A stretch of DNA of 64,000 nt from Chiloscyllium plagiosum (Eukaryota), in contig NC_057718.1 of NCBI RefSeq assembly GCF_004010195.1, forward strand, positions 49,687,239-49,751,238, in the 5' to 3' direction. The position numbers and the translations under genes were made by a program. Shown here piece by piece: positions 2,880 to 57,349 of the stretch. Each line of letters begins with the position of its first letter. Position 1 is the stretch's first letter. The notes beneath the pieces were generated by a model. That model was not told where the DNA came from, ran no database searches, and worked only from the letters and a program-made list of their open reading frames with translations.

Positions 2880-3125
2880 GAAGAGCAGTGTATCTGCTGA
2901 TCTTGTCATTGTAGATGGAAGTGTTTGTGGGTTTGGAAGTTGCTTTGTGGCCTTAGTGAATTTCGCAGTCCATTTTATGGATGGTACATGCTGCTTCTGA
3001 TGATGAGTGTCAGTGGTGCAGGGAGTGGATGCTTGTGGATGTGGTGCCAATCAAGTGACTGCTTTGTTCTGTATAGTGTCAAACTTTTTAAGTGTTGTTG
3101 GGGCTGCATTCATCCCCAGGCATCC
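2880..3125 (-). mobile_element. Fragment of a second non-LTR retrotransposon family (as at 9230-10730)
   Basis: Reverse complement resembles 10330-10490 (gcagcatgtaccatccataaaatggactgc vs gcaacagtgtgaaccatctttaagatgaattgc). Confidence 0.55.
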
Positions 3126-3584
3126 AGCTGTAGAACCTACTCATGGGAGACATCTTCCTTTAAATTGGTGCAGGATAAGCCCCTTTGGCAAGAGTCCATT
3201 ATTCATCCCATATTCTGATTGTTAGCTGACAGGGAACTTGCCACCTTCTTCTTTCTGTTGACCACACCTGTTGCAAACTTTTGTTTCTCTCTTTCTCTCT
3301 CTTCTGTCCAAAAATTTAGAGACCAAAACGCTGTTGCTGTTGTTGTTAGGAGTAAATAATTTGCATATTTTTCCTATTCTTTCTAAACTGTCCCAACTCC
3401 CCTTATATTTAAACTTTACTGTCATATTTACAAAAGTCCTTATCACCATTACCTACACTATTTACATATCTTAATATACCTCCTTACTAATACCTCAAAG
3501 ATCCTGTGCTTTAGAGGAAAAGTTTCATTATCCTCCTGGAATATGTACTGAGACACTTTTGACATTGTGGAAGGTTTCTACATG

Positions 3585-3881
3585 TAGTCACAGAGTCATA
3601 CAGCATGGAAACAAACCCTTTGGTTCAACCAATCCATAATCCCAAACTAAACTAGTCCTACGTGCCTGCTCCTGGCCCCTATCTCTCCAAACCTTTCCTA
3701 ATCATGCATCTATCCAAATGTTTTTTAAACATTGTAACTGTACCCACATCCATCGCTTCCTCAGGAAGTTCATTCCACACGTGAACCACCCTCTATGTAA
3801 TACGTTTGCCTCTTCATGTTTTATTAAAATCTCTCTCCTATCACCTTAAAAATGTGACCCTAGTCTTGAAAACCCCCTATC
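3585..3881 (-). mobile_element. CR1 LINE 3' terminal fragment
   Basis: Same 3' UTR as other CR1 ends (cagcatggaaaca...ccctt; gttcattccacac). Confidence 0.75.
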
Positions 3882-4063
3882 TTAGATTAGATTAGATTAG
3901 ATTAGATTACAGTACAGTGTGGAAACAGGCCCTTCGGCCCAACAAGTCCACACCGACCCGCCGAAGCGCAACCCACCCATACCCCTACATTTACCCCTTA
4001 CCTAACACTACGGGCAATTTAGCATGGCCAATTCACCTGACCTGCACATCTTTGGACTGTGGG
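3882..4063 (-). mobile_element. HE1/V-SINE-like SINE, 3' half with (ttaga)n tail
   Basis: Matches the reverse complement of the full SINE copies (e.g. 39177-39488); ttagattagattag tail. Confidence 0.85.
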
Positions 4064-5524
4064 AGTTATATGAAAATATTTTGGTTTATTCTATTTTGTC
4101 TTCATAACTTTTCCATAATAAACTTCGGTTTTATTGATAAACTTGAGTCTGCAGCATTACATTTCTGTGTTTCAGTGAAAGATTACCTTGTTAAAGCAAA
4201 AAAGAATTATCAAGCCAGCTGTCTGTCTGGGATTTGACTTGCCAGTAACAAAATCAGCTGTGATCATAACAGCATTAAATAGACTGTAAGTGTCCTTTAA
4301 GGTAAAAATCTATAACTACTATATGCTCTTCAAATAAATGAATGGCTGCCTTCCATTTGAGGTTGCAAGTCAGATGTTAAGATTTGCTTGATTGACAGGT
4401 CAACTGATAATTTGGAGTCATTGAAATACCAATATATATGCAGAATGGGAACATGAACCACTCAACATTTTAAGATTACTTTTCAACTGCAGGAAAGAAA
4501 GCTGTGGGCAACAGATAGCAAGTGTCTTCTTAACTTGCAATTGATCCCTTAAAGGTTGAGCAAGTGAAAGCTGCAATTGGGAATCAATCAATCAGAAATA
4601 ATAACACAATCAATAACAACAAAATTCAAATGAACTGGCTTCTAAATTAGAATGGTACCGAGGTAGTGCACTAAAATATTATAGAAAATAAGACTTATAA
4701 CTATACATACCAGCAAGTGTAATGATATTCCCATTGGGATACCCATGACATTGTATATGGTGAGTTGTAGAATACATTGTTTCATGAGATACAACATACA
4801 TGATCTGCATTGCTGATATAAAATGACTGCATACCTAGAATGATGTTTGCATTATACAATATTGCAGTAATGTTAGTGATATATTCCAGTCCTAATATTG
4901 TGATCATGTCCATCATGTACAGTACTGAGTAACAGGAGAGCAGAATAACCCTCGCATATATTCAGAAATGATGAAGACTTTGTTTGAGACTAGTGCAGCA
5001 GAAATGCTAATGGTGTGAAAATGATGTGAGATTGATATTATGTGTGGAAGGACTGGTATGGAGAAGCAGGATGCAAGAAATTTATGGATGTGGTTTCTGG
5101 ATGTGACAGTAAAGCAACGTGGCTGGAGGGGTTTGGAAGCAATGGGCAAGGAGATTAGGCCTGAATCCATTACTAAGAGGTTTAGGACAATTGGGAGTTT
5201 ACAAAATATAACAGCACTGGAGAAGGAGATTGAATATCTGCTGGAACTTTGGAAGATAGATTATGGGTCTGAATGAGGAAAATCTGAAATTATTGACAGA
5301 AGTATACAACGTGATTATGGTGGAGGGACCTGGTAATATGTGCTGGAAAATCCAGTGATGAGGACAGAGAAGATTGAGTCCTCACTTTCCTAAAATATTT
5401 ACAATTGGGTTTCCCAAAACTGAACTGCTATATTAGTTAAAGCACATGTGCTTTTATTGGCAAATAAAATATAAAAATTCAACACCCATCAAACATTGTA
5501 TACATATCTTTAATCTATTTAAGA

Positions 5525-6170
5525 CCATTAGAATATAAGAAATAAGAGAGGAAGTAAGGCCATTCAGCCCATCGAGTCCACTCTGCCATTCAATTATGGC
5601 TGATGGGCATTTCAATGCCACTTACCCGCACTCTCCCTGTATCCCTTAATTCCTTGCGGGATTAAGAATTTATCAATCTCTGCCTCAAAGACATTTAATG
5701 TCCCGGCCTCCACTGCACTCTGTGGCAGTGAATTCCACAGGCCCACCACTCTCTGGCTGAAGAAATGTCTCATTTCCATTTTAAATTGACCCCCTTCTAA
5801 TTCTAAGGCTGTGCCCACGAGTCCTAGTATCCCTGCCTGACGGAATCAATTTCCTAGCATCCACCCTTTCTAAGCCATGCATTATCTTGTAAGATTCTAT
5901 TAGATCTCCCCTCAACCTTCTGAACTCTAATAAATACAATCCCAGAATCCTCAGCTGTTCATCATATGTTAGGCCTACCATTCCAGGGATCATCCGTGTG
6001 AATCTCCACTGGACACGCTCCAGTGGCAGTATGGCTTTCCTGAGGTGTGGGGCCCGAAATTGGACACAGTATTCTAAATAGGGCCTAACCAGACCTTTAT
6101 AAATCTTAATAGCACCTCACTGCTTTTACATTCTAATCCTCTTGAAATAAATGACAACATTAAATTTGCT
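5525..6170 (-). mobile_element. CR1 LINE 3' fragment
   Basis: ORFs LGLYLLEFRRLRGDLIESYKIM and FFSQRVVGLWNSLPQSAVEAG. Confidence 0.9.
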
Positions 6171-7284
6171 AACTTTACCACCCCCCCACTCAAATTTAGC
6201 ATCTCTTGTCATTTTCCTAACTGCATTCCATATACAATTTGACTTAAAACATTCAAGCCCTCCAGAAATGCAGATTATCTAGGTTAACTCAAGAACTTGT
6301 TTGCCAACATGAACTTAATAGAACAATATCTAATAAAATATATAACTTTTTGTGTATGGAGGAAACATAATCCTGCCAGTGAGTAAATGGTTTTCAAAAA
6401 AGTAATATGTATTGCTATTTGTGTGAAAAGTATAAAGCATGCATGAATTTAGGTCAGGAACATACATTTCTGGAGGAGATGAGATGAGTAGATGAGGCAA
6501 ATGAATAGGGTGAGAGTAAAGATTCTCAACATAGGGGCAAACTTTGTGGTTACATTCTCCAATTTTAAAGTCCAGGTCAGTGTTCGTGAGTGCAGGTTTT
6601 AGGAAGCTGATCATATTAAAACATATCAGAATGAATTTACTTCTACCCAGTTTTGAAAAACAAGGAAGTGATGACGGCTTCAAATGATGGTTACATTGAG
6701 GTGTGTGACCTATAAGTACAAGCAAAGCAGCTAAGGAGAGGAGGCAGATTGTATGTGTGAGGAATAGGGCACTAAAGTAGCTAATGGAGGCAGGTTGGCT
6801 GTGTCTATAGAGCTGGATAGAGTGAAAATGGCGAAGGAGAGGGAAGATCAGTATAGCAGGGATAGAGCACTATCTAGACAAGTATGTTGCATCGTCTAAG
6901 CAAGGATGGAGCAAGTCGGTGTGGTCTGTAAGCTGGAGAATGTTTTCATCACTTCAGTGTCCATCACTGAGGAGGTCATTCCTACTAACCAGGTAGTCAG
7001 CCCATTGACTATCTGAATGACCCTTAATTTCCTGAAAATCTTTTGTGGAGGAATTCTTCTCTCTGATCAAGGCGAAGTTATCCCACAACATCATCTGGAC
7101 CATCTTGAATCTCATGAATTTCCGTCAAGTTGAAGCAGATATTTTATCTCATGCAGTTTCCTATATTTGTGGAGCTGGCAATTTCTTGTTGATCATGTCC
7201 TGGATCTTAAATTGGACATATTTATTTACCTTCTTTGGTTATGTAAATGACGAGCCCAACATATTCCCATCATCAGTCACAGTA

Positions 7285-7520
7285 CAGCAGCATGGTGACT
7301 CAGTGGTTGGCACTGCTGCCTCACAGCACCAGGGAGCGACTGTCTGTCCTGCCCACTATGTCCAAGAGTCTGCAGGCTGGGTAGATTAGCCATGGGAAAT
7401 GCAGGGTTGGGGGATAGGGTAGAGAAGTGCATCTGGATGGGATGCTTTTCAGAGGATTGGTGTGGACTTGATAGGCTGAATGGCCTGCTTTCACACTGTA
7501 AGGATTCTAAAATTCTAATA
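7285..7520 (+). mobile_element. Decayed HE1/V-SINE-like SINE
   Basis: tRNA-like head gcatggtgactcagtggttggcactgctgcctcacagcacc; CR1-like tail. Confidence 0.7.
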
Positions 7521-8359
7521 AATATTCCTTTTGAATTTCTATTGATTCATCATCTGAAATCAAATTTGAATCCATTATCACAGTTTGTTCACCAGGCTGT
7601 CTTGCTGCATGGATGATTTTAGTTAAAGCTTGAACAATAATTTCAAGTGTGTTGGACTGCTCATTCTTTTCCTCCTTACCTGAATCTTCTTGTAAACTTT
7701 GCTGGTTTCTGTCATCTGAATTTTATTTACTGATGATAAAACTGTTTCTCAGTCCTAATAGCCCTGTTTAATCACAGATTTCACAATACATTCTGAAATC
7801 TTCAGTCTCTCTTCAGAGGTCTAGCTTCCACAGAGCCAACTGAGGCCTGGGTGTGCACTTTGATTTCCTAAGTGTCGCAGGTGCATCATTCCATGTTTTT
7901 GCTTTCAGCACAGTCTGAATGAATTTCTCTGAAGTCAGATCTTCTTTCTACTGCAAGAAATCTGACAAAGACTTATTAATATTTCAATCCACGATTCTGT
8001 TACTTAAACATTTTATTTCAAAACTCTTGAATCCAGTTTTTCACAAATCTGTAGAGAATATTGCTGAACTAAGATAAGGAAGACCTTAAATTTTGAACTC
8101 TTCTGTTAAATCATGGTCTTTCAAGAATTTTCATATTATTGTCCAAAAGCGTGGAGAACTCCATCAAAAGCAACTATGCCTTGATTCGTGACTTGATGAG
8201 CGATAATGAGGTCACTTGCTGATTCTATTGTGTTCACTAGATTACCATTTAGTCATCTTCTTAGATTTTGTCTGTTTTGGCGGCAAATCTACAACTTAAG
8301 AACTATTGTCCTTAAGATGACCAAGCCTGTGTTCTATTTCTCTCACGTCTGGGGGGAAA

Positions 8360-9188
8360 GGACCTCCCCTGCATCTCCTCCACTTCCCGCTCCTCCGCCC
8401 TTGAGCCCCGCCCCTCCAATCGCCACCAGGGCAGAACCCCACTGGTCCTCACCTACCACCCCACCAACCTCCACATACACCGTATCATCCGTCGTCATTT
8501 CCGCCACCTACAAACGGACCCCACCTCCAGGGATATATTTCCCTCCCCATCCCTATCCGCTTTCCACAAAGACTGTTCCCTCCATGACTACCTGNNNNNN
8601 NNNNNNNNNNNNNNNNNNNNNNNNNNNNNNNNNNNNNNNNNNNNNNNNNNNNNNNNNNNNNNNNNNNNNNNNNNNNNNNNNNNNNNNNNNNNNNNNNNNN
8701 NNNNNNNNNNNNNNNNNNNNNNNNNNNNNNNNNNNNNNNNNNNNNNNNNNNNNNNNNNNNNNNNNNNNNNNNNNNNNNNNNNNNNNNNNNNNNNNNNNNN
8801 NNNNNNNNNNNNNNNNNNNNNNNNNNNNNNNNNNNNNNNNNNNNNNNNNNNNNNNNNNNNNNNNNNNNNNNNNNNNNNNNNNNNNNNNNNNNNNNNNNNN
8901 NNNNNNNNNNNNNNNNNNNNNNNNNNNNNNNNNNNNNNNNNNNNNNNNNNNNNNNNNNNNNNNNNNNNACCTCCTTCCACCTATCGCATTTCCAACGCCC
9001 CTCCCCCAAGTCCCTCCTCCCTACCTTTTATCTTAGCCTGCTGGACACACTTTCCTCATTCCTGAAGAAGGGCTCATGCCCGAAACGTCGATTCTCCTTT
9101 TCCTTGGATGCTGCCTGACCTGCTGCGCTTTTCCAGCAACACATTTTCAGCTCTGATCTCCAGCATCTGCAGTCCTCACTTACTCCTC
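8360..9188 (+). mobile_element. Penelope-like element (Neptune-like), 3' part with pseudo-LTR, spanning an N gap
   Basis: Translates RTPLVLTYHPTNLHIHRIIRRHFRHLQTDP, typical of the PLE RT C-terminal region; pLTR with hammerhead core ends ...cagcatctgcagtcctcact. Confidence 0.8.
9056..9095 (+). ncRNA. Minimal type I hammerhead ribozyme motif
   Basis: CTGAAGA (9062) - gggc/tcat/gccc stem II - GAAA (9082) - CGTC. Confidence 0.75.
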
Positions 9189-9229
9189 GTACCAAGTGGA
9201 TAATCTATCTCAGCTTCCACTTTAGGTGC

Positions 9230-10730
9230 TCAGCATCACAGAGGCCAGTCTTCAGAAAATTTGATTCACGCCATGTGATAGCAAGGAATGATCAGAGGGC
9301 TTTGGTGCTCTGAAATTAATTGTACTCCTGTCATAGCTGTTTCTATACTGCGAAAGCACTAGCATTCACCCAGAGATAACATAAATTGCCCAGGTATGTC
9401 TGGTCCATAAAAAGGAGAACCTATCCAATCTACTGAATGACCACCTCAATTGACCAGTCTCAATTGTAAATGAAGTGATGGGAAAAGTCATCAATAGACG
9501 CATCAGTTGGCACTTACTGAACCACAACTTTCTCACTGACTGTTAGTCAGTTTGAATTCCCCAAGGGCTATTCAGTTCCATACTTTATTAAAACTTTGAC
9601 TAAAATATAGAGGAATGAGCTGCTTTCCAGAGGTGAAGTGAGAGAGATTGTCAGCAGTACTACCAGAGTTCATCGAGGAGCCCAAGCAAAATTGAAATCA
9701 ATAAAAATCATGAGGAGGGCTGATGGAATTTCCTACTGATTGGAATATCATCAAGCAAAGTAGATGATTGTAATTGCTGAAGGTCAATCCTCTTAAGCCT
9801 ATGGTATCACAGCAGGTGTTCCTCAGTTTAGTGTCTTAGACCCTCACTTGCAGCTGCTTCATCAGTGATCTTTCTTTGAACATAAGTTCATAAGTGAGGA
9901 TGTTTTCTGATGATTGTACAGATTTCAATATTGCTTACATCTTCTCAAATATTGAAACAGACTCTGCTCATATGCAGTGTGACCTGGGCAACATTCAGGT
10001 TTGGGCTGATAAGTGTTAAGTAACATTTATACCTCATCGATGCTAGGTAATGACCATTTCCAACAAGACAGAATCTAACCATCATTCATGATGTTCAATA
10101 GCAATACCATCACTGAATCACTCACCATCTAATGGGTTTAGCAGAAACCTAACTCAGCCATCTAAATATAGACTGTGCCTTCAGGAACAGAAATCCTGCT
10201 GTAAATATCTTATCTGCTGAATTCTCAAAGCCAGTTCATGATCTACAAGGCACAATGCCACAATGCAATGGAAGATTCTACATTTGCCTGGTTGAGAGCA
10301 GCTCCATCCAATATAAAGCAGCCTGCTTAATCAGCACTCAGCAACCCCCTCAAATATTCATTCCCTTTAGCTTTGACATACAATGGCAACAGTGTGAACC
10401 ATCTTTAAGATGAATTGCAGCAACTTGCCAAGTCTTTCAACAGTAGCATCCAAATTTGTGGCTTTTATCACTTAGAAGGACAAGAACAGAAGTCACAACT
10501 TGGAAGCTTTTCATCAAGTCACACATCACCCTGATGTGGAACTTTATTATTGTCCTTCACGATCATTGAGTCAAAATCCTGGAACTTCCTTGTGGATATA
10601 TCTGTCCTGAAGAGATTGTAATAGTTCAAGAAGGTTGTTCACCAAGACTTTCTCAAAGATAATTAGAAATGTACAAAACATGTTGCCCATTCACATGATG
10701 TCCACATTCCAAGTAGGACTGAAAAACAGC
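9230..10730 (+). mobile_element. Old non-LTR retrotransposon (CR1/L2 group, second family), decayed RT and 3' end
   Basis: RT motifs GVPQFSVLDP (~9815-9844) and VRMFSDDC (~9894-9917); many stops; 3' end resembles the SINE tail at 40720-40780. Confidence 0.7.
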
Positions 10731-12202
10731 CAAAAATAAAAATGGAATTCAAACCTTGGATGCACCTTCACAGATGTATTTTCAGATGTGAGTTCTTATT
10801 CTAGGTTTATGACCTTTAATACTTTTATATTTTTGTATTGCTTGGAAAAATCTGTTAACACTCCATATGATGGGTGGTCTAGTCAGAAGTGAATAAAGGC
10901 TGGGAGCAAATAAGTGCAATTCTTGCAGTTTTTTTGAAAAAAATACTGTTTAATTTAAGGGACAGGAATAACAACTGGGTGTTGAAGTTACTGAAGATCT
11001 GCAAGATAGGTTAGGTAGTGACATCTGGAAGGTCCCTTGGGAATAATTAGTAAGGGCATCCAAAGGTTGTATTCCTCATTGAGTAGATGATGTATTAACA
11101 GTAGAGGGATCAGAAAAGATTGCAGGAACTTGAGCGAACTTAAATTTAATTAGTTCAGTTAAGTGGTCCATTCAGAACCTAGTTTTGCTGATTCTTCTTT
11201 CACATGTAGGAAGTGTGTAAAGCTTGGATTTAAAACTACAAAGAAATCTCTACTTTACTCTTTGAAACCTTCCTTGTTAAAAAAAGCTACAGTTAATCAT
11301 GTGAGACTGTTTGCTGCAGAACACATATGAATGTTCCTGAAGTCTGCCTTCATTGTACTGCTTCACACTGGCACTGCAGTTATGTTAACGTGAAAGTAAT
11401 GTGTGGTCTAACATGAAAAATAAGTCTGATGCAGCACAGTGACAAACAAACATAAAACTAAAAAAGGCTAAACAAGGCTGAATTTCTCCCTCAACATATC
11501 ATCCTTCTGCAGGTCCCTCTACATCTCCTTGACGAATATTGTCTTTAATAAGTTGCGGCCATATCTATACCCATCAGATTCATGCAATACAAATGATGAT
11601 GATGGATGTTATACAAAAGTGACCATAGGCATGGAAATTATTTTATTAGTTGTAGACTCTGTCAAAGCAATATGCTGGTGGAGAGATTAAATCTGCATTT
11701 TTGCATTTATCTTTTACATCTTGAGACTGGCAGTTTCAAATTTCTTTATACCTAAACTCCCAGGGCTCTGATTCCTAGCAGTGCATAAAGGCACTAACGA
11801 TCCTTCAAAGAAGTCAAGGTAAGATCATGAGCTAAAATGACACTTCGCCCTCAGTTAATGTAAGGTCTTGGAAAAGAAATTGAAATGTAATCTTGGCGCT
11901 TATTAAATCACTCAATGTCACTAAAATACCTGCTTGTGCTCACTACATAGTCTGCCTTGCTTTTTAGTAGAGAGCACTTCAACTAAAAATGACTGTTTGG
12001 GAACAGAGGATTAATCATGGTTTCACCATTACTTAGAAAGGTAAACATCTTCTCATGTTTATTGCTGCTAAAACTGTGAAGAAGATTGCTGAAACACAGC
12101 GGGGCACTTTCTGCGACATTTGTTTTAGACTTCATTAATACTTAAGGAATATTTATTCGGCAAATTATCTGACAAACTCACCTGTAAAAATCGAATAAAG
12201 TG

Positions 12203-12778
12203 TGTAGGTATATGGCTTGGTGGGAGCGGCCTCGGTTGCGGTCGGGGGAACGAGATAAACAGCAATGGTGTTACCGCCCTGTGCGTACAGATACGGGATG
12301 TGTGGTGCTCTCTGGTTGCAAGAGGACGTCACGTGGAAACTGTTTCGCGCACAAGCGGAGGTCACGTGGAGACTGTTTCGTAGGCAGAAGGAGGTCACAT
12401 GGGGTTAGACATCCAGGAACGCGAGAAGGCGGAGAATGGAGTCAGATCAACAGCCAATCAGAAGACAATCCCTACGGGATGTGTGGAGACTGTTTTGCGT
12501 GCAAGAGGAGGTCACATGGGGTAAGAAATCCAGGAACGCGAGAAGGCAGAGAATGGAGTCAGATCAACAGCCAATCAGAAGACAATCCCACCTCAGTGAT
12601 TGCATGACGTTCTGTACTGTATAAAAGACTGGGTCAGGGACAGGAATAGGTCGGACTTCGTGAACTGACACACTTTGCTGTTTGTCAGGGACGGGAAGAC
12701 CTATTCATTGAAAGAACACGCAGGACCCGGCTCACACATAGAGGAAAGTAAGCTGGTAGATTGAGCCAAAGTCCAACA
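12203..12778 (+). repeat. ERV 5' LTR (576 bp)
   Basis: Starts tgtaggtatatggcttgg, ends agtccaaca; direct repeat of 18330-18845; two CCAAT boxes (agccaatcag) and TATAAAA at 12620. Confidence 0.95.
12620..12626 (+). promoter_or_regulatory. LTR TATA box (3' LTR copy at 18608-18614)
   Basis: TATAAAA about 50 nt downstream of a CCAAT box in both LTRs. Confidence 0.75.
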
Positions 12779-12781
12779 ATT

Positions 12782-12799
12782 TGGTGACCCCGACGTGAT
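12782..12799 (+). promoter_or_regulatory. Primer-binding site complementary to the tRNA-Trp 3' end
   Basis: TGGTGACCCCGACGTGAT just after the 5' LTR; I recognise it as the tRNA-Trp PBS 18-mer of avian sarcoma/leukosis viruses. Confidence 0.9.
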
Positions 12800-12882
12800 G
12801 AAGACGGAGAAGTGACGGAAAAAAAGAGAGAAAAATAGAAACAATGGACAACTGATGACAACAACAAGCGGCGCCACATAAA

Positions 12883-12891
12883 AAGGTGAGC
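12883..12891 (+). promoter_or_regulatory. Putative major splice donor (AAG|GTGAGC)
   Basis: Consensus donor ~85 nt downstream of the PBS; pairs logically with the acceptor at 17871. Confidence 0.5.
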
Positions 12892-13473
12892 AGACACCTG
12901 TTTATATCGAAGTTCTGCAATTGGAGATACCAAATTGATTGTTGTCATTATACTGCAAGTGTCCTAGTAATAGTAAGTGGATAAAGTATTGACTTAATAC
13001 GTACGGGTTTAAAGTCCCGTGGGGTTAGAGTCTCCATAAAAGCAACAAGGTACGCACGGGTTTAAAGTCCCGTGGGGTTAGGGTCCCCATAAAAGCAACA
13101 AGGTGCGTAAGCATGAGGAGGTTTAAAGTCCATTGAGCAGGATCTCATAAAAGCAACGCTCACAAATTTTGGTTTATGATTGATGTGTTGTAAGTTTTAA
13201 AATTATATTGGGGAACGTACGGAGGGTGGCAGAAAAGCCAGTAGTGTCTCGAAGACAAAGACGGTGGTGTCTCAGCGAGAGAGAGTCAGCAGTGGAAACC
13301 TAACGGTGACAACGAAACTGCTGATAATTCTCACTGAAAGGGTCAGTTGCTCGGGTGTACTCCATACAAACAGACTGGCAACCGGATTTGTCTCTGATTG
13401 GGTTGGTTGCTCGGTTATATTACATCCAAACCAACTGACTACTGGACGGGAGGATAAAAAAACCCCACATAAA

Positions 13474-13985
13474 ATGGAAGGGGAGATGTTCATCAGTGCA
13501 AGAGCCAGATGCTCACTCAACACCGTATAGTGCTGAGAGTGAAAAGAGGGGAAGATTACATGACTCAGGTCAGTTACTAGATGATGGGTTCTCAGACAGA
13601 AGAAGGAGAGATTTGAGGGAAGAAAGAGACAGAGAGAAATTGGTTGGGGAGCCATCTCAAAATAGTACGGAAATTAAAGACGAAGAATCCCTGACAGAGG
13701 ATGACCCACACACCACCCCATCACTTTGACAGGCTCACTCACAATGCATACGGGAACACGGCCCTCCACTGAAGCCCCTACCTGAAACAAGATATAACCT
13801 GTGTCAAAGAGACCCATTATGACAACCCACAAAGTATCAGCACCACCAAATGCCATTAATTTACAGAGGCTCCTATATGGGGGATGTTTATCAGCCCTTC
13901 ACATTAACTGACATGAATTGCATCCTGGATAAGATGCCCCCACCCACTGAGGGAGGTTGGCCCTGGATGACTAAATTTTGCCAAT
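13474..13985 (+). pseudogene. gag: gag remnant (frameshifted and deleted, includes capsid N-terminus)
   Basis: ATG in aaaATGG context at 13474; later frame reads MPLIYRGSYMGDVYQPFTLTDMNCILDKMPPPTEGGWPWMTKFCQL, resembling fish ERV capsid starts. Confidence 0.65.
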
Positions 13986-14495
13986 TGGTGTGACTTGTTT
14001 GCAGTGACCAACGTCTGTTGGACCTGCTGACCACAAGGTATCTGGTAGAGTGTCAAGCATCGCTGCAGCCTGTGGATAGTCTGTTTTTTCCCTGCCATGA
14101 AACCTTTCAATCTGCCTGTGTTCCAGCAGTACCTTGTCAATTGTCCTGTACATAATTCTGTAGGCTTCCTCTAATGCCCGGGTTGGCCACATTCAAAACA
14201 GGTATTGGGAGGCTGACCTCTGAGTCCTCCGCGGCCGACCTCCCTCAGTGGGTGGGGGCATCTTATCCAGGATGCAATTCATGTCAGTTAATGTGAAGGG
14301 CTGATAAACATCCCCCATATAGGAGCCTCTGTAAATTAATGGCATTTGGTGGTGCTGATACTTTGTGGGTTGTCATAATGGGTCTCTTTGACACAGGTTA
14401 TATCTTGTTTCAGGTAGGGGCTTCAGTGGAGGGCCGTGTTCCGTATGCGTTGTGAATGAGCCTATCAAAGTGACGGGGTAGGTGTGTGGGTCATC
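13982..14495 (-). pseudogene. Inverted gag-NC-pol segment
   Basis: Minus strand has a copy of gag 13700-13957, a partial zinc knuckle GRGGLRGQPPNTCFECGQPGH (14174-14200), then LPDTLWSAGPTDVGHCKQVTPI, which continues into the post-gap TPITFDL of pol. Confidence 0.8.
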
Positions 14496-15195
14496 NNNNN
14501 NNNNNNNNNNNNNNNNNNNNNNNNNNNNNNNNNNNNNNNNNNNNNNNNNNNNNNNNNNNNNNNNNNNNNNNNNNNNNNNNNNNNNNNNNNNNNNNNNNNN
14601 NNNNNNNNNNNNNNNNNNNNNNNNNNNNNNNNNNNNNNNNNNNNNNNNNNNNNNNNNNNNNNNNNNNNNNNNNNNNNNNNNNNNNNNNNNNNNNNNNNNN
14701 NNNNNNNNNNNNNNNNNNNNNNNNNNNNNNNNNNNNNNNNNNNNNNNNNNNNNNNNNNNNNNNNNNNNNNNNNNNNNNNNNNNNNNNNNNNNNNNNNNNN
14801 NNNNNNNNNNNNNNNNNNNNNNNNNNNNNNNNNNNNNNNNNNNNNNNNNNNNNNNNNNNNNNNNNNNNNNNNNNNNNNNNNNNNNNNNNNNNNNNNNNNN
14901 NNNNNNNNNNNNNNNNNNNNNNNNNNNNNNNNNNNNNNNNNNNNNNNNNNNNNNNNNNNNNNNNNNNNNNNNNNNNNNNNNNNNNNNNNNNNNNNNNNNN
15001 NNNNNNNNNNNNNNNNNNNNNNNNNNNNNNNNNNNNNNNNNNNNNNNNNNNNNNNNNNNNNNNNNNNNNNNNNNNNNNNNNNNNNNNNNNNNNNNNNNNN
15101 NNNNNNNNNNNNNNNNNNNNNNNNNNNNNNNNNNNNNNNNNNNNNNNNNNNNNNNNNNNNNNNNNNNNNNNNNNNNNNNNNNNNNNNNNNNNNNN

Positions 15196-17843
15196 ACACC
15201 AATCACATTCGATTTAATAGACCACACTCCGATTTGGCAGAGACAATACTCACACAAACCAGAGGCTGAAGCTAGCATTGCCGACACAATTGAAGGATTG
15301 TTAGCAGCAGGGGTGCTGGAACCCTCCCAGTCAGCCTGGAACACTCCTATTTTACCTGTAGAGAAGCAGAATACAGGTAAATATAGGATGGCACATGATC
15401 TTAGACGGATCAATAGTGTTGTCTCTACTCCAACAGTTCCAGTTCCAAACCCATACATTGCAATGCTGCAGACAAACAGTGTCTTTTCTGGGTAGAGTTA
15501 TTTCCGCTAAAGGAACAGGTGTGTTTCCGTCCCATAGATCCTCCATTTTGCATCATACCAAATCAGTCACTGTAAAAGACATGCTCTCATTTCTTGGGTT
15601 GGCAGGATACAGCAGACAATTTGTTGCATCATATGGGGAGCTCACTTTCCCTCTGAGGGCCATGGTATATGAGCAAGGCATGAGAAATTTGTCGGCCCAT
15701 TTGCAGTGGACCACAGAGGCAGACGAAAGTTTCATATCTCTCAAACAGGCCCTAACGCGGGCTGCTGATTTAGCGGTCCCGGGTTATAAAGAGCCATTTT
15801 TCCTCAATGTTTCTGAAAAATCATACACAATAAATGGTGTTCTTTTTCAGAAAAAAAGCGGGAGGCAGGCAGGTGCTGATGTATGTAAGTGTTACCCTTG
15901 ACCCAACAGAGGACAGACACCCGCCATGTACAAGGCATGCAGCAGGGGTAGCAAAAATTCTCCAAAAGGTAGCACATATAGTCATGAACTCAACAGCCTT
16001 CACAATGACGTCACTGTGGCAAACCAGGTTAGAGAAAATCCTGAATGCACCACATATAACTTTCACACATGAAGGAATCAACATGGCTGCCAACATGGGA
16101 GAAGGAGAACCACACATGTGCGAGGAAAGGGTACAGGAAGACATCAAAGTTAGGGCAGACTTACAGGCAAAACCACTAGTAGACCCAGAAGAAGTGCTGT
16201 TCACAGATGGTTGCCGTTACAGACATCCAACTGAAGGACTTAAAGCAGCCTAAGCAGTGGTGTGACAGACAAGTGAGGGATTTGAGGAAGTGTTGACAGG
16301 AAAAGTGACAGGCAAAGAATCAGTCCAGTTGGCTGAACTACAGGCAATAATAGCTGCGTTAGAATGGTCAGAGGGAAAAAGAGTGAACATCTACACTGAC
16401 TCTGTATACGTGGTAGGAGCTATACAGATAGAACTCAGTCAATGGATCAGAGCAGGATTCTTGACAGCAGCAAAAATACCAATCAAACATGAAAAAGATG
16501 TGAAAAGATTAGCGGAGGCCCTAATAAAACCTGCAGAAGTGGCAGTGGTCAAGTGTAGAGGACATGACAGAACTGATACAACAGTAGCTAAGGGCAATCA
16601 GGAAGCAGACTTAGCAGCAAAAAAAGCAGCAGGATATACACCCCAGTACATAATGATGCAAACAGAGAGAACAGTGTATGACCTGCTGCCCGCCTGCGAT
16701 GCAAATGTGTTAATAAAAGAGCAACAGAAAGCCTCTCCTCATGAACTGACAGTATGGAGAGAGGGGCCACAGAGTCAGAAGGGATTTGGAGGTCACCGGA
16801 CGGTAGACCAGTGCTACCCCCAGGTTTGATAGCTTCCATGCTCCAGGAAGCTCATGGGTTGACACACTGTGGAAAAACGCAGATGCAGGGGTATCTGACA
16901 CATTGGTGGCATCCGTTCTTGCCAGCAATGATTGAAAATTACATCAGAGGATGTAAAACGTGTACAGAATACAATGTAAAAGCAACAGTGAAACCTCACG
17001 AGGGAAAATTCCCTCTCCCAAGAATGCCAGGTCAGGAAATAGTGATTGACTACACTGACATGATAGAGAGAGTAAACGGATACCGGTACCTTTTGGTAGC
17101 AGTGGATGCATACACTGGTTGGCCAGAAATGATACCTACGAAAAAGGAAGACGCAAAAACAGTGATCAAATTCTTGATAAACCAATACATTCCAATGCAT
17201 GGGTTTCCAAAGCGAGTCAGGTCAGATAATGGCACACATTTCAAGAAGAATGACCTGCAAGAAGTTGAAGCAGCTTTAGGACTGAAACATGCGTTTGGAA
17301 CAGTGTACCATCCTCAGTCACAGGGAAAAGTGGAAAGAATGAATCAGTCCATAAAAGGAAAAATAGGAAAAGTGTGTGCACAAACAAAGTTAAGCTGGGT
17401 GGATGCCCTTAGCTTTAATGTCCATTAGAAGCTCAGTAAACTCTATCATAGGGTTCACCCCATATGAGCTAACAACAGGGCAGCAGCAGTTCCCGGGACC
17501 AGGAGCTGGAATACAGATGTTAGAGGGAGGAGGAGCCTCTCTAAGGTACAAACGTTACTATGACCAACTAACAGCTTGGGTGTCAGTTTTCTCTAAACAG
17601 GTTGGAACGGCAAATGGGGACCTACAGAGCCAGGCGCCATCTACCACGGACTGGGTCCTGCTGAAAGTGATCAAACGGAAGTGGTCGGAGCCAAGGTGGA
17701 CAGGACCTTATAAGGTGGTGGAGAGGACATCTCATGCGGTCAGACTACAGGGGAAAGGAGAAAGCTGGTACCATTGGAGCCAGTGTGCAGCCACGGAACC
17801 GCCAACGAGAACTCTAGAACAAATAAGAACAGAAAAAGTGTAG
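15196..17843 (+). pseudogene. pol: pol pseudogene: RT (catalytic core deleted), connection, RNase H, integrase
   Basis: WNTPILPVEK, YRMAHDLRRIN, FLGLAGYSRQF; RNase H LFTDG, QLAELQAI, NIYTDS, GNQEAD; IN HHCC (HGLTH..CKTC) and DDE (IDYTD, SDNGTHF, GKVERMN); several frameshifts and stops. Confidence 0.95.
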
Positions 17844-17854
17844 AAGGGTCTTAA

Positions 17855-17871
17855 ACTTTTAATTTTTGCAG
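17855..17871 (+). promoter_or_regulatory. Putative env splice acceptor
   Basis: cttttaatttttgcag|g immediately after the pol stop codon. Confidence 0.55.
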
Positions 17872-17881
17872 GAAGAGGGTT

Positions 17882-18217
17882 CTGGAAAAAGGGGGGAGTG
17901 TGCTCTATGTTCAGAGATCAATGTTGTACGCTCATCCCCAACAATACAGCACCTGATGGCTTGGTAACCAGAGCCCTGGAAGGACTAAGAACCTTGTCTG
18001 AAGAAATGCATGAACACTCAGGTATTGATAACCCTCTAGGAGGCATCTTCGACTCATGGTTTGGGAAATGGAAATGTGTTTATGTCCCTCGTTGGTATGA
18101 TGACTGCGTTAGTGTTGTGTGGATGTTGTTGTATCCCCTGTATTAGATCTCTGTTGAACTGGGTAATCATCACAGCAATTGAAAGGAAGGCTCTCTCGCC
18201 CTACCAGATGTCATAGA
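17882..18217 (+). pseudogene. env: env remnant (TM subunit C-terminal part only)
   Basis: EKGGVCSMFRDQCCTLIPNNT (end of immunosuppressive-domain-like region plus CX6CC); after a frameshift a hydrophobic anchor VFMSLVGMMTALVLCGCCCIPCIRSL. SU absent. Confidence 0.88.
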
Positions 18218-18317
18218 TGGAGACGGAAACCATGGCTCTGGCAGGAAGGGAAGACTATGCATCAGAGAGCGAATGTGATGTATAAAACTGGTTTGTTGGT
18301 CTCATTTTCATGAGACC

Positions 18318-18327
18318 AAAAGGGGGA
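18318..18327 (+). promoter_or_regulatory. Polypurine tract
   Basis: AAAAGGGGGA 2 nt before the TGT start of the 3' LTR. Confidence 0.85.
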
Positions 18328-18329
18328 CT

Positions 18330-18845
18330 TGTAAGTATATGGCTTGGTGGGAGTGGCCACGGTTGCGGTCGGGGGAACGAGATAAACAGAAAGGGTATTA
18401 CCGCCCTGTGCGTACAGATACGGGATGTGTGGTGCTCTCTGGTTGCAAGAGGAGACTGTTTCGCGCGCAAGCGGAGGTCACGTGGAGACTGTTTCGCGGG
18501 CAGAAGGGGTCAGACATCCTGGAACGCGAGAAGGCGGAAAATGGAGTCAGATCAACAGCCAATCAGAAGACAATCCCACCTCAGTGATTGCATGATGTTC
18601 TGTACTTTATAAAAGACTGGGTCAGGGACAGGAATAGGTCGGACTTCGTGAACTGACACACTTTGCTGTTTGTCAGGGACGGGAAGACCTAGACCCAGAG
18701 CTCTGTATACTTTATCCACTTACTGCTAAAATAAACTAAGAGTTTGAGACCGAATATCTTCTCCTATTGCTTCATTGAAAGAACACGCAGGACCCGGCTC
18801 ACACATAGAGGAAAGTAAGCTGGTAGATTGAGCCAAAGTCCAACA
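18330..18845 (+). repeat. ERV 3' LTR (516 bp) with AATAAA at 18730-18735
   Basis: Direct repeat of the 5' LTR; ends ccaaca, followed by TSD agtg. Confidence 0.95.
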
Positions 18846-19244
18846 AGTGATACTACCATCACACATGGTCAAGAGTGCAAAAGGAGTCCTTCATCATGGC
18901 TATTTTGCACATGGTCTGCACATGAGGAACATGTGAAGAATATTTTCCTACGGTAAAGCATGACCAGTTGCGGAAAGCGAGAGGGAGAGGTGACTGAAGT
19001 GTCATTCTTTCTGGTACAGATACAGGAGTTACCTGGATTTCCAGTGCAACATCTGAGTACTTTCTGTCTTGGCCACTGTAACATATTGCTGGGTGCCAGG
19101 CAATGCACTGAACATCTTCAAGTGTAAATGTGTGCATCAAAATTCTGTCTGGACATCACCTCAGTGTTCAATTTGTAGGTTTCTATTTAGCATTACCAGG
19201 CACATCCAAATCATGGTGATTGGAACTTAGAAACCATTCACAAA

Positions 19245-19850
19245 GACATGTCTTAGTACAATTGCACATTGACGCTATCGTCAAGAAAGCACAGCAGTGC
19301 CTCTATTTCCACAGAAGGCTAGGGAAATTTAGCATATCCACAGAGACTCATTCAAATTTTAATAGATGCACTACAGAAAGTGTTCTATATGGATAATGAC
19401 TTGCTATGGCAACTGCTCTTCCCAAGACCGAAAGAAACTACAGAGTTGTGAACACAGCCCAGTCCATTAAGCAAACCAGCTTTCCATCCATTTGACTTTA
19501 TCTATTCTTTCCACTGCCTCAGGAAAACAACCCACTTACTTAAAAACCCTTCCACAATGGTTTTACTCTCTTCCATCTTCTTTCATCAGGCAGAAGACTT
19601 AAAAGTTGCATACATGTACAAACAGATTCAAGAACTGCTTCTTCCCCATTGTTATCAAACTTTTTAATGAATCTCTTTAATGTTAATGTTGATCTCTCTC
19701 TGCTCCTTCTTGGCAGCTGTAACACTGTGTCCTGTACTTGGTTCTGTTCCTCTGATGCACTTGTGTAGTACAATCTGCTTGTAAAACACATAAGACGACA
19801 CTTTTCACTGTACCCCAGTATGTGTGACAGTAATAAATCAAATCAAACAA
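19245..19850 (+). mobile_element. Rex1/Babar-like LINE 3' fragment
   Basis: Decayed KAQQCLYF.RRLGKF...NRCTTESVL...CYGNCS, typical of the Rex1/Babar RT C-terminus; aataaatcaaatcaaa tail. Confidence 0.7.
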
Positions 19851-22051: not shown

Positions 22052-23500
22052 ATGTATGTAAGTTAGCTTGCTGAGCTGGAAGGTTTGTTTTCAGATGTTT
22101 CATCACCATGATTAGGTAACATCATCAGTGAGAGTCTCTGGTGAAGTGCTGGTGGTATGCCCTGACTCTCTATTTATAGGTCTTGGTTTCTTAAGGTGGG
22201 TGATGTCATTTCTGGTTCTTTTTCTCAAGGGAAGGTAGATAGGGTCTAAATTGATGTGTTTATTGATGGAGTTCTGGTTAGAATGCCATGCCTCTAAGAA
22301 TTCTCGTGCGTATCTTTGTTTTGCCTGTCCTAGGTGATGTGTGTTGTCCCAGTCAAAGTGGTGTCCTTCTTTGTCTATATGTATGGAAACTAGTGATAGA
22401 GGGTCATGTCTGTTGGTGGCTAGTTGGTGTTCATATATCCTGGTGGCAAGTTTCCTGCTTGTTTGTCCAATATAGTGCTTTTTCCAGTTCTTGTGTGGTA
22501 TTTTGTAAATAATGTTAGTTTTGCTGGTAGTATCTAATGGATCCTTTAGGTCTGAGTCGCTGTTTAAGTGTGTTGGTAGGTTTGTGGGCTACCATGATGC
22601 CAAGGAGTCTGAATAGTCTGGAAGTCATTTCTGATATGTCTTTGATGTAAGGTAATGTGGCCATAGTTTTTGACTGTGTTGTGTCTGAGGAATTGGCAGA
22701 TTATGTTTATTGTGTACCCGTTTTTCTTGAAAACATTGTATAGATATTTTTCTTCTGCTGTTTGTAGTTCTTGAGTGCTGCAACGTGATGTGACTCGTTG
22801 AAATAATGTCTTCATGCAGCTCGTTTGTGGGTATTGGGATGACTGCTTCTGAAATATTTGGTCTGTGTGTGTTGTTTTTCTGTAGACGCTGGTTTGAAGC
22901 TCTCTGTTAACTGTACGTTCAACTGCCACATCCAGGAATGGGAGTCTGTTGTTCTCCTCTCCTTTTGTGAATTTTATGTCTGTCAGGATATTGTTGATGG
23001 TGTTGTATGTTTCTTCTAATTTGTTCCATTTTGTGATGACAAAGATATCATCCAGATAAAGGTCTCAAAGTTTGGGTTGGATCAATGGGAGGGCTGCTTG
23101 TTCTAGTCTTTGCATTACTGCCTCCGCTATGAGCCCTGATATTGGTGATCCCCCGGGTGTCCTTTGACTGGGACAACACACACATCCTCGGACAAGTGAA
23201 ACAAAGGCACGCACGAGAATTCTTAGGGGCATGGCATTCTAACCGGAACTCCATAATAAACACATCGATTTAGACCCCACCTACCTTCTCTTGAGAAAAA
23301 GAAAATGACATCACCCATTTTAAGAAACTAAGACCTATAAATAGAGAGGTGGGACATACCACCAGCACTTCACCGGAGACACTCCCTAATGATGTTACCT
23401 AGTCATGGTGATTAAATGAATGAAAATGAATCTTCCAGCTCAGCGAGCTAATTTATATACATATCATCAACATGAGCTACAAATCTGCTCAAAAATCACT
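22052..23500. mobile_element. Penelope-like element (Poseidon-like) with inverted pseudo-LTRs and 14-bp TSD
   Basis: Minus-strand RT (YLDDIFVIT, TSVYRKTTHTDQ); GIY-YIG C-terminus HAREFLGAWHS on plus; 22052-22350 is an inverted repeat of ~23165-23465; TSD aacttcacagtgat at 22038-22051 and 23501-23514. Confidence 0.85.
22092..22134 (-). ncRNA. Hammerhead ribozyme motif in a PLE pLTR
   Basis: Minus strand: CTGATGA tgttacctaatcatggtgat GAAA catc. Confidence 0.6.
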
Positions 23501-24769: not shown

Positions 24770-26523
24770 AGGTGGGAAAAAGTGAGGACTGCAGATGTTG
24801 GAGATCAGAGTCGACAATGTGGTGCTGGAAAAACACAGAAGGTCAGGCACCACCTCAGGAGGAGAATCCACATTTCAGACATAAGCCCTTCATTAGGAAT
24901 GTGGCTTGTGGGCCAGGGAGAGCTGAGAGATAAAGTGACAGCAGCCTGACTTGCTGTGCTTTTCCAGCTACACACTCTTGACTGTAATATCCAGCATCTG
25001 CAGTCCTCACTTTCTCCTAGTTGATTTTAACCTCTTTCAAGGATGCCTACCTTGAAGAAGTTCTCCTCCTCTCTCTGCAAAGATCTCAGTGAGTGTCTCT
25101 TTCACTGCAACTCCCAGGTCATCTCCTCTGTCCTGAAGCTCTCTAGCCACGTTCTGAAGAAGACTCACTATCACAACCGCACTTCCTTCCTTAGCACCAG
25201 CCTACGGAACCGACTGATCCCACAGCGACTCTGGACTACATTCAGACCAACTCAATTTGGGACCTGAACAGGATAACCAGTACATACTACAAATCTGAAA
25301 CCTTCAGCAGCAATTATCTTCCTGGATCCTCCACTCCACGCTAGCAGCCATATGCTGCTACCTACTCTACCTGCAATCAGCCCTGCCTCAGCTCAGGGCC
25401 ACTCTCTCCCAGACCTGCAACAGACCTCTACAGTTCTACATCCTCAGAAGAATTCATACACTCAACAAACAGTTTTCTCCACTATATCGGACATAAAAGA
25501 ATGTAAATTAAACAAACTTTCATGTACTTACCTCAATACATGGGTTTCCTCGACCATTTCAGAGCCTTCCCCTGGCCTCTGGAACTGCCCTAATGCCATG
25601 AGCCACACGGCCACAGTGAATTATGATGTCACTTCTGCCCCTGCTGCCCCACAGGCAGCAGCCTCTGCCGATCACACCATCTTCACAATCGCCATCCAGA
25701 CAACCACTTCTGTGATTGCCAGGAAGTTGATTGCCTCTGCGACCACCGCCGGATCCACCGCTGCTGCTAGATTCACCACGTCTGGCACAGACGCGATACC
25801 TATTCTGCATGTCACTTCCACCCCCACAATTGCTGCTACCGCAGCCACTTCCACCCCTAAAGACGTCACTCACCTGGCCATGGATGACTCTATCGCCTAC
25901 ATCACTTCCATCACCAGTGACATCGCTCACTGGGAACCATCCCGCAATGTCACTGACACCCCCCCACGGACACTGCTGTCAGCCCCACTTCCGCCCCATT
26001 GTGAGTGTCACTTCCGTTGATGACGTCACTCTTGACCCTATAATCATGCCCACTCAAGTGACTGTCTCTGCCCTGACACCCAGCTCCAGCCCCACCCAGG
26101 TCCTAGTTCTCAGTCCTGCCATGTCTTTACTATTCCCCCAGACCTCACCCTCACTTAGTCCTCAGCAAAGGCCTCGCCTTCATCTCTCTACACTCCCAGA
26201 TAATGAGTTCAACAGTCGTTGCAACCTTGAATATTTCTTCCATCGCCTCCACTTCTGGGCCCACTTTTTCAATCAAGACTCTCGCCCACCCACCGAGGAC
26301 CCCTTCTCTCACCTCCAATACACCCCATCCACCTAGACATCTCATATTGGCCTGTTACCGGCCCTCGATTTCTTCATTTCTAACTGCCACAATTTTATCT
26401 GTCAGCCCACCCCCCCGGCCCACAAGCCTCATGCCTGATGAAGGACTTATGCCTGAAAAGTTGATTTTCCTGCACCTCACATGTTGCCTGACCTGCTATC
26501 CTTTTCCAGCACCACACTCTCCA
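24770..26523 (+). mobile_element. Internally deleted Neptune-like PLE with pLTR pieces, inserted in CR1
   Basis: LKKTHYHNRTSFLSTSLRNRLIPQ and FFHRLHFWAHFF resemble the PLE N-terminal domain; pLTR fragments at both ends; TSD caataatca at 24761-24769 and 26524-26532. Confidence 0.7.
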
Positions 26524-27690
26524 CAATAATCATGAGGGGCTTCAATTTGCCGGTGAACTAGGAAAATCATGTTGGTAGTAGATCTAAACAAAAAGGAACT
26601 TACGGATTGTCTATGAGATTTTTTTTAGAGCAGCTTATGGCAGAACCCACTAGGGAACAGATAATTCTGGATTTTGTGATGTGTAGTGAGGTAGAATTGA
26701 GTTGGAAACATAAAGTGAAGAAACCTCAAGGCAGCAGGAACCATAATATGATAGAATTCGCCCTATGATAGAGGGAGAACGTTGAATCAGATGTAGCGGT
26801 ATTACAATTGAGTAAAGGTAACTACAAAGACATGACAGAGTAACTGGTCAGAATTAATTAGAAGGGAGCCTAGCAAGGAAGATGCTGGAGCAGCAATGGC
26901 AGGAGTTTCTCAGGGCTAATTTGCGAGGCACGGCAGAAATTCATCCCAAGGAAGAACAAACATACTTTGGGGAGGACAAGGCGACCATGGCTGACAAGGA
27001 AAGTGGGCACAACATAAAAGCAAAAGAAAAAGCATACAACTTGGGAAATCATGGGAAATTAGTGGGAAATCAGAGGATTGAGAAGTCTTTAAAAAACAGC
27101 AGAGGATAACTAAAAAAAGCAACAAGGGGTAAGCCAGCTAGCAATATAAAAGAAGATTGCAAGAGTTAGTTTTAGATATATACAGGGTAAGAGAGAAGTA
27201 AGAGTGGATATTGGACCACTGGAAAATCTGGCTGGTGATGTAGTAATGGGAAACAAAGAAAAGGTGGAAGACCTGAAGAGGCACTTGGCATCAGTTTTCA
27301 CAGCAGAAGCCAGCAGCAGCATACTAGAACTTCAAGAGAATTGGGGGGGCAGAGGTGTATGCAATGGCCATCACTAAAGAGAAGTTGCTGGGGAAGTTGA
27401 AAGATCTGAAGGTGGATAAATCACCTGGGCTAGGTGGACTACAACCCAGAATTCTGAAGGAGATCACTGAGGAGATTGTTGATGCCCATACTAAACTGTC
27501 CATGGTGTTCAGGAATGTGTAGGCTAGGCGCATTAGTCGGAGTATTGGTGGGTATTGGTGGGAATTTTTCAGGAATCACTGGAGTCAGGTAGGTTCCCAG
27601 AGGACTCAGAGATGGCTAATTAAACACTCCTGTTTAAAAAGGGAGGGAGACAGAAAACAAGAAACAATAGGCCTCAGTCTATCATCCGAA

Positions 27691-57348: not shown

Positions 57349-57349
57349 A

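Follow-up and report, generated by a model that had tools for sequence, protein, structure and literature searches.

The 64,000-nucleotide stretch of the Chiloscyllium plagiosum genome analysed here (the window: positions 49,687,239 to 49,751,238 of the forward strand of contig NC_057718.1, assembly GCF_004010195.1) carries an endogenous retrovirus (ERV) at 12203-18845, on the plus strand like all features below unless otherwise noted, with a pair of long terminal repeats (LTRs), a target-site duplication, a primer-binding site (PBS), a polypurine tract, pol and the tail of env. It is the dead provirus of a class I fish retrovirus. To judge from its relatives and their trees, the lineage very probably passed from one to the other of bony fish and sharks through infection, and is likely to have multiplied afterwards in the germ line of bamboo sharks. 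Shark and bony-fish hosts split more than 400 million years ago, and a Pol identity of 82-85% across that split opens the route, direction and timing of transfer to testing, given also the entry of a related family into rays and an insertion whose age can be set against a split between species. Jumps between sharks and teleosts have already been published, and the present case is a clear further instance of a type of host jump already on record; cross-class jumps of fish retroviruses are known from broad trees, and close named pairs are few in the literature covered.

Relatives of the provirus and the shape of the Pol tree

A search with the integrase yielded 137 proteins, and among the best 120 of these the top matches were mackerel P0001 and Chiloscyllium punctatum P0002, at 89% each. 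Between the window and the Pol of mackerel P0001, 756 of 917 aligned residues are identical (about 82%) over five pieces, with 77-91% per piece, and the shark family member P0110 shares 596 of 704 residues (84.7%) with P0001, against 74% with electric ray P0136 and 68.5% with P0007 from the congeneric chub mackerel, Scomber japonicus. The corresponding figures for the window and C. punctatum are 82-92% for the Pol pieces and 90% over 63 residues of Env. Env relatives occur in C. punctatum, C. plagiosum and Hemiscyllium ocellatum on contigs of 35-143 Mb, and the mackerel copies lie on three different contigs of 30-33 Mb. Because these contigs are of chromosome scale the mackerel family is not contamination, and this, with the very small differences between copies, is the reason for regarding it, from the assembled sequences, as a real and recent family. 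A search of 50% clusters gave no closer relative (10 matches were checked, including three from teleosts and one from a ray), a single-protein scan of viral contigs gave no match and a broad alignment gave no usable pattern.

In a Pol tree of 26 rows the window groups with two C. punctatum rows (support 100/99), their sister is a set of two S. scombrus rows and one member of the cluster of these (98/97), the electric ray comes next (95/96) and the whole set is nested among teleost rows. The path between shark and mackerel (0.19-0.20) is shorter than that from mackerel to any named teleost row, the congener included. The pairing of shark and mackerel recurs on reverse transcriptase (RT) alone (99/97) and in a quick 70-row tree, whose rows were hand-picked from about 220 Pol matches and in which the end branches measure 0.002-0.008 for the mackerel copies and 0.04-0.07 for the shark copies. 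When all teleost rows were constrained to one clade (19 rows) the tree was 97 log units worse and was rejected by the approximately unbiased (AU) test (p-AU 8.7e-7). A single clade of the elasmobranch rows was likewise rejected, with p values of 0.0048 (19 rows) and 0.036 (26 rows), two weaker values that call for caution, being obtained under LG+G4 with groups named after the first tree. A first-pass annotation made from the letters of the window had described the proteins as resembling teleost ERVs, had raised cross-class transmission and had proposed trees of RT and integrase as a check. The resemblance is borne out and cross-class transmission is well supported, in that the nearest non-shark Pol is that of Atlantic mackerel, the Pol is nested among teleost ERVs in a tree that is not host-shaped, and the RT and Pol trees alike pair shark with mackerel.

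A number of other rows deserve mention. The electric ray Narcine bancroftii (P0010, P0095, P0136, P0138, P0146) has a family of its own in the teleost-nested clade, with a Pol 74% identical to that of the shark, which would represent a second cross-class event. The remora Echeneis naucrates (P0127, P0128, P0234), a fish that rides on sharks, supplies near but not nearest relatives in both Pol and Env trees. In the Env tree (40 rows, 212 columns) the Env of the horn shark Heterodontus francisci, P0291, stands away from fish with bird and human-labelled rows P0295, P0308, P0310 and P0334 (100/100), a possible separate link between sharks and amniotes. Two fish ERV Pol proteins, P0071 and P0072, are labelled in NCBI as proteins of bacterial metagenome-assembled genomes (Cetobacterium, Plesiomonas) and are likely to be host DNA in gut assemblies.

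The insertion site, age and abundance of the family

Read contigs from four runs of two organisms, A and a related organism B, bear on the time of insertion. The unique right flank shows 3 differences in 1,706 bases against the runs of organism A, one indel stretch aside, and the flank shows 114 in 3,695 (3.1%) against organism B. Contig 28 of run X3 (organism B; 2,813 nt, depth 11.9, as for a single copy), the orientation of which was deduced from neighbouring pieces in the same table, fits 18845-19434 and extends a further 2,223 nt leftwards in a sequence unlike the LTR. It departs from the window at the base predicted by an empty site, since the two sides agree in the base before AGTG and differ in the one beyond it. 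The site therefore seems to be empty in a related species about 3% away. The first-pass annotation had suggested a search for this empty AGTG site, which organism B thus appears to hold, and had called the element fairly young; that description stands relative to the speciation of the hosts, but not with respect to LTRs that differ by 3.4-4.4% and genes that are heavily decayed.

The family is abundant in both organisms. Between 2,534 and 3,891 read contigs match in each run, a count that includes a flank repeat, and summed depth over the provirus is 295-24,647 versus mostly 8-24 on unique flank. Because of this abundance the family would have entered before the split of organisms A and B, or else entered both, and the copy in the window would have been inserted around or after that split. 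In a search of runs, 20 of the 24 rows hold 0.22-0.33 of the words and come from two organisms only (the four runs compared here are among these 20), with no sign of a near-identical copy in a third, which is weak evidence. A high-copy repeat lies at 19270-19850, some 400 bases to the right of the provirus, and has a summed depth of 3,000-13,000 in all four runs; further out, at 20833, contigs from X1 and X11 diverge from the window where others continue, which is likely to be a structural polymorphism in the flank.

The two LTRs differ at 15-19 of 437 columns, five of the differences being CpG-type transitions, and all of the differences fall within the first 278 columns (P about 0.001). This unevenness points to conversion or to mixing of copies and weakens the LTR clock. 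Taken at face value the differences correspond to 8, 18, 35 or 80 million years at rates of 2.2e-9, 1e-9, 5e-10 and 2.2e-10 respectively, of which the first (mammalian) and the last (assumed for sharks) are given in PMC4422223. A shark rate of 7e-10 per base per generation is reported in PMC10587355. With differences unevenly spread and the rate uncertain, the LTR clock was rejected as a firm date. The case would also allow the slow molecular clock of sharks to be calibrated with LTR pairs.

Retroviral class and the primer-binding site

Compared with RT structures, P0110 scores 274-280 bits against murine leukaemia virus (MLV) and xenotropic MLV-related virus (XMRV), 141 against foamy virus and 51 against HIV-2. 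In an RT tree of 39 rows, including reference viruses from IMG/VR, the window falls in a fish clade with locus L087 (100/99), apart from the rows of spuma and class II viruses, though the tree leaves the base of class I open. The six gamma-like references form a separate clade (100/100) from which this Pol is excluded, and the YMDD class II references, with which an alpharetroviral Pol would be expected to stand, are a distant clade; the reference names (MLV, avian leukosis virus (ALV) and others) are ones that we presume to be correct. Locus L125 (12,708 nt), which we take to be walleye dermal sarcoma virus (WDSV), lies outside the fish clade (98/97) and shows 36% as against 49% for L087, so the Pol is not of WDSV type. 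Alpharetroviruses duplicate 6 bases of their target, unlike the 4-base duplication here.

The Env is of gamma type, as indicated by the CX6CC motif in the window and by a TLV_coat match in the shark relative P0229 (E 7e-10); the env piece of the window alone has no Pfam match and lacks the immunosuppressive domain. Its transmembrane subunit (TM) runs into the polypurine tract and leaves no room for the accessory frames of a WDSV-type virus. Epsilonretroviruses of WDSV type are described as having accessory genes and a non-gamma Env (bioRxiv 10.1101/2021.11.23.469661). Paired HxT/S motifs occur between protease and RT in P0003, P0121 and P0007 (two each), and a single one in P0136 and L087; the region has no Pfam match in these relatives and only its tail survives in the window. 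The motifs of the relatives would be in line with the CNPase-like insert reported at this position in some members related to SSSV (salmon swim-bladder sarcoma virus) and zebrafish endogenous retrovirus (ZFERV) (PMC4977317), where ZFERV is itself reported as a relative of SSSV. Judged by its Pol and Env the element is best placed as a simple class I retrovirus with a gamma-type Env in the SSSV/ZFERV-related, epsilon-like fish group, and as neither a Gammaretrovirus nor a WDSV-type Epsilonretrovirus. The earlier assignment to class I thus holds, and its description of both TM and Pol as gamma-type is right for the Env, with its CX6CC motif, but not for the Pol, which groups with SSSV.

The nearest exogenous virus found is L087 (10,305 nt), which is 85% identical to a rainbow-trout protein and has the gag-pol junction TGAAGA that is given for SSSV in PMC13517186. 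The corresponding junction, at which viruses of this clade read through a stop codon, has been deleted from the copy in the window or falls within its assembly gap. Its Pol is 45% identical to mackerel P0001 and its Env 43% to shark P0229, the Env tail LCGCCCIPC is common to both and env in L087 directly follows pol. It differs in its primer site, TGGTAGCAGAGGATGG..., as against the Trp type here, in an identity of only about 45%, and in that the copy in the window is endogenous, dead and in a shark host. The primer site of L087 is presumably of Met type.

The PBS (12782-12799) starts three bases past the end of the LTR and matches 18 of the 18 bases at the 3' end of tRNA-Trp, CCA included, in reverse complement, the comparison sequence being that of human, not shark, as printed in bioRxiv 10.1101/400127; the first-pass reading of the site as tRNA-Trp type is thereby upheld. 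The same 18-mer serves as a PCR primer for ALV and endogenous avian retrovirus (EAV) (PMC5029493). Of 86 viral loci retrieved with the PBS core, 9 contain it unchanged, most of them with a context like that of avian sarcoma and leukosis viruses (ASLV), and the bases around it in the window are unlike those of the ASLV-like loci. The spacer between the CA end of the LTR and the PBS is three bases here (12779-12781) and two in the ASLV-like loci. No tRNA was detected by ARAGORN among the 86 loci, and tRNA and Rfam scans of the window gave no match. A tRNA-Trp primer is uncommon among human ERVs, where one relic type only is recorded (PMC11905727), and primer data for zebrafish ERVs are not given in the available part of PMC8672886. 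The Trp primer is a real oddity, yet it is not a sign of kinship with avian alpharetroviruses, because these fall far away in the RT tree.

Direction of transfer and alternative explanations

Several points weigh against transfer between bony fish and sharks as set out above. The trees were built under LG+G4 and not a mixture model, which makes the AU test more error-prone, and the clade groupings for that test were named after the first tree had been seen. Sampling follows the content of protein databases, with 70 of about 220 Pol matches in the largest tree, and the shark and mackerel elements were compared on the protein level only. On RT alone a row of the grouper cluster, not the ray, stands next (83/63). 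The Env tree places the hemiscylliid Env with soldierfish, grouper, remora and other rows (98/97), with the mackerel Env outside, and groups the four hemiscylliid rows at just 57/77; over some 400 residues the shark Env is 74-77% identical to that of mackerel and equally 74-77% to that of soldierfish. At the insertion site, the 2,223-nt run-on of contig 28 was judged unlike the LTR without its letters in view, and the two runs of organism A have no cover at 18882-19075 and are uninformative on polymorphism. The direction of transfer is also open, as a single entry into elasmobranchs with a later return to mackerel is no costlier in changes than two entries. Bamboo sharks and Atlantic mackerel today occupy separate ranges. 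In view of the Env tree, the grouper row on RT alone and these ranges, the donor is likely to have been a lineage of spiny-rayed fish beyond those sampled, with env exchanged on the route.

An important consideration is whether the distribution of the family could have arisen in another way. Vertical descent from a jawed-vertebrate ancestor, with shark and mackerel copies diverging along with their hosts, might be entertained in view of the presence of the family in two hemiscylliid genera and a ray and of the slow evolution of sharks (7e-10 per base per generation; PMC10587355), but it is extremely improbable, given that the host-shaped tree is rejected (p-AU 8.7e-7), that the shortest path from the mackerel ERV to a named row leads to the shark element (0.19-0.20) and not to a teleost, and that the insertion seems to be absent from a relative 3.1% away (114 of 3,695). 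An artefact of contamination or mis-assembly, joining teleost viral DNA to shark DNA or the other way round, would fit the gaps of short-read style, the inverted duplicate adjoining one of them and the confinement of LTR differences to the first 278 of 437 columns, and the copy may indeed be part-mixed from family members. As an account of the whole element it is scarcely tenable, since a matching duplication stands at both ends of the provirus, family copies are plentiful in all four runs from both organisms, and the named relatives in three shark species and in mackerel are placed on contigs of chromosome scale. The tRNA-Trp site might suggest recombination with, or descent from, a virus like the avian alpharetroviruses, as the 18-mer recurs unchanged in 9 of the 86 viral loci, most with ASLV-like context; such an origin is hardly credible, the 18 bases being no more than the complementary sequence to a tRNA end that is conserved, with different neighbouring bases, YMDD class II references far off in the tree and a different primer in the nearest exogenous virus.

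The alternative with most to recommend it is a round trip, in which a virus of teleosts made one entry into elasmobranchs, gave rise there to branches in rays and in sharks, and sent a shark-borne branch back to mackerel. The mackerel rows are nested inside elasmobranch rows (95/96 and 98/97), and the mackerel copies are nearly identical (0.002-0.008) beside older shark copies (0.04-0.07). Two separate entries nevertheless cost the same number of changes, the ray shifts its place on RT alone, Env points to other teleosts and the young mackerel copies date just their own burst, and a round trip is on balance unlikely, although it deserves consideration. A broader version, in which one SSSV-related lineage made repeated crossings, reaching electric rays, reaching the bamboo and epaulette sharks and returning from sharks to Atlantic mackerel, is a similarly minor possibility; if true, it would mean a return jump from shark to teleost and a still-mobile marine retrovirus expanding in mackerel, with an Env that crosses vertebrate classes.

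If, as is preferred here, the lineage crossed between bony fish and sharks by infection, it would have originated in spiny-rayed teleosts and, to judge from the trees, have reached sharks by way of carriers that were not sampled and not directly from mackerel, and with the family of the electric ray included the cross-class events would number two or more. By analogy with retroviruses in general, reverse transcription would have been primed by host tRNA-Trp, integration carried out by the DDE integrase, and Env, of gamma type and made from a spliced RNA, would have mediated entry into cells. After crossing, the lineage is likely to have multiplied in the bamboo-shark germ line, and the insertion of this copy, which has since decayed, would fall at about the time when two closely related shark species separated, or later.

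Published endogenous retroviruses of cartilaginous fishes

The sister of the shark element in the Pol tree, the Scomber scombrus ERV family (XP_062284313.1, XP_062282217.1, XP_062289536.1), is also related in Env and to the Gag remnant, and is unlike it in having a teleost host, nearly identical copies with long open frames and an Env that is not sister to that of the shark. Cartilaginous-fish ERVs have been found scattered over the retroviral tree by Han 2015 (CmiERV I-III, PMC4422223) and Xu et al. 2018 (PMC6001957), in elephant shark, whale shark and little skate, and the same two papers report frequent host switches with ray-finned fish as hubs. Neither Chiloscyllium nor Scomber nor Narcine gave a match in seven supplementary files of Xu et al. 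2018. The peptides GMRNL and FTHEGINM, which are typical of the clade, occur at at least five places in the sequence file of that paper, none of them among the matches listed for skate or whale shark, nor near the elephant-shark part. Clustering of shark ERVs with those of ray-finned fish in other clades is reported in PMC10699275. Chiloscyllium, Hemiscyllium and Scomber colias appear in the genome list only of Wang and Han 2023 (PMC10435555), as far as 12 of its 14 supplementary files are concerned.

Chen et al. (bioRxiv 10.1101/2021.11.23.469661) screened six cartilaginous fishes, Chiloscyllium included, for gamma-type Env, with 46 orthologous groups in Chiloscyllium and mention of cross-class sharing of Env. 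Their ERVs (for example ERV-GA.a-Cpu, and ERV-EA lineages in other hosts) resemble the present element in an epsilon-related class I Pol, a gamma-type Env and the lack of accessory genes; by contrast, their main text, when searched, held no pairing with mackerel or ray and no PBS (0 matches). The family may already stand among these lineages, and the suggestion of the first-pass annotation that it may be undescribed is unproven, since Chiloscyllium genomes were among those in which this screen looked for such gamma-type Env. The literature searched, outside which most subscription journals fall, contained no report that pairs Chiloscyllium with Scomber or with Narcine.

Structure and decay of the provirus

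The provirus is flanked by AGTG at 12199-12202 and 18846-18849, a match of four bases that has a chance of 1/256, and the flank of organism B departs from the window exactly at the right-hand copy. Both LTRs run from TG to CA. The 5' LTR (12203-12778) has a 117-nt duplication in U3 (12366-12589) and TATAAAA at 12620, and is without a 79-nt stretch, present in the 3' LTR, that holds the sole AATAAA; the 3' LTR (18330-18845) has TATAAAA at 18608 and AATAAA at 18730. A CpG-rich leader (12800-13477) contains AGGTGAG at 12884, a putative splice donor, and a 53-nt tandem repeat (12998-13104), beside which there is a third decayed unit, making 12998-13140 a candidate packaging element. The polypurine tract lies at 18318-18327. 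Observed/expected CpG is 0.77 and 0.75 for the two LTRs and 0.83 for the leader, whereas 98 tiles of 576 nt from the flanks have a median of 0.23 and reach 0.62 at most; in pol it is 0.33 here and 0.48 in the salmon virus. Between TG...CA LTRs with their duplication, PBS and polypurine tract, the genes, incomplete as they are, follow the retroviral order gag-pol (RT-RNase H-integrase)-env, as in a provirus of the Retroviridae. All the landmarks that the first-pass annotation had listed, from the LTR pair and AGTG to CX6CC and CGCCCIPC, were found at their places, as were the many LTR CpGs in CpG-poor surroundings.

The copy is far more decayed than that annotation conveyed, with the protease, the YxDD of RT and most of env missing. 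The gag remnant (13478-13984) has stops, is 43% identical to residues 117-277 of mackerel P0121 and ends early in capsid. It is followed by an inverted piece (13974-14495, minus strand) composed of a second copy of gag 13700-13958 (96% identical), a zinc-knuckle fragment and a stretch from before RT, the end of which overlaps the first bases after an assembly gap of 700 N (14496-15195). With two different versions of gag next to each other at the gap, it looks as if copies of the family had been mixed in assembly, but the inversion may also be real. No protease is present. The pol remnant (15196-17843) comprises the start of RT, its thumb and connection, RNase H, integrase with HHCC and DDE motifs, and an MLV-type C-terminal domain; Pfam matches were obtained for RT connection, RNase H, integrase zinc finger and core, and the MLV-type integrase C-terminus, the last with a score under the curated cut-off. 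Relative to mackerel P0001 it is broken by frame into five pieces, contains two in-frame stops and is short of about 108 RT codons (the palm with YxDD) and of 16 further codons. Directly after the pol stop a pyrimidine tract with CAG (17857-17871) resembles a splice acceptor and may have served as one, and most of env is gone just behind it. What is left of env (17886-18282) is about the last 130 codons of TM in two frames, with CX6CC at 17901-17927, a membrane span and CGCCCIPC at 18118-18141. From its reading frames the copy is unable by itself to encode a working RT or Env, and it has no evident function of its own.

Other features of the window

Decayed retroelement frames are found at 22112-23064 (minus strand), 26107-26529, 49929-50321 and 56720-58090 (minus strand), which we take to be Penelope-like and CR1-like and which may resemble the corresponding elements of sharks. 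A degenerate telomere-like (AACCCT) tract occupies 37737-37822.

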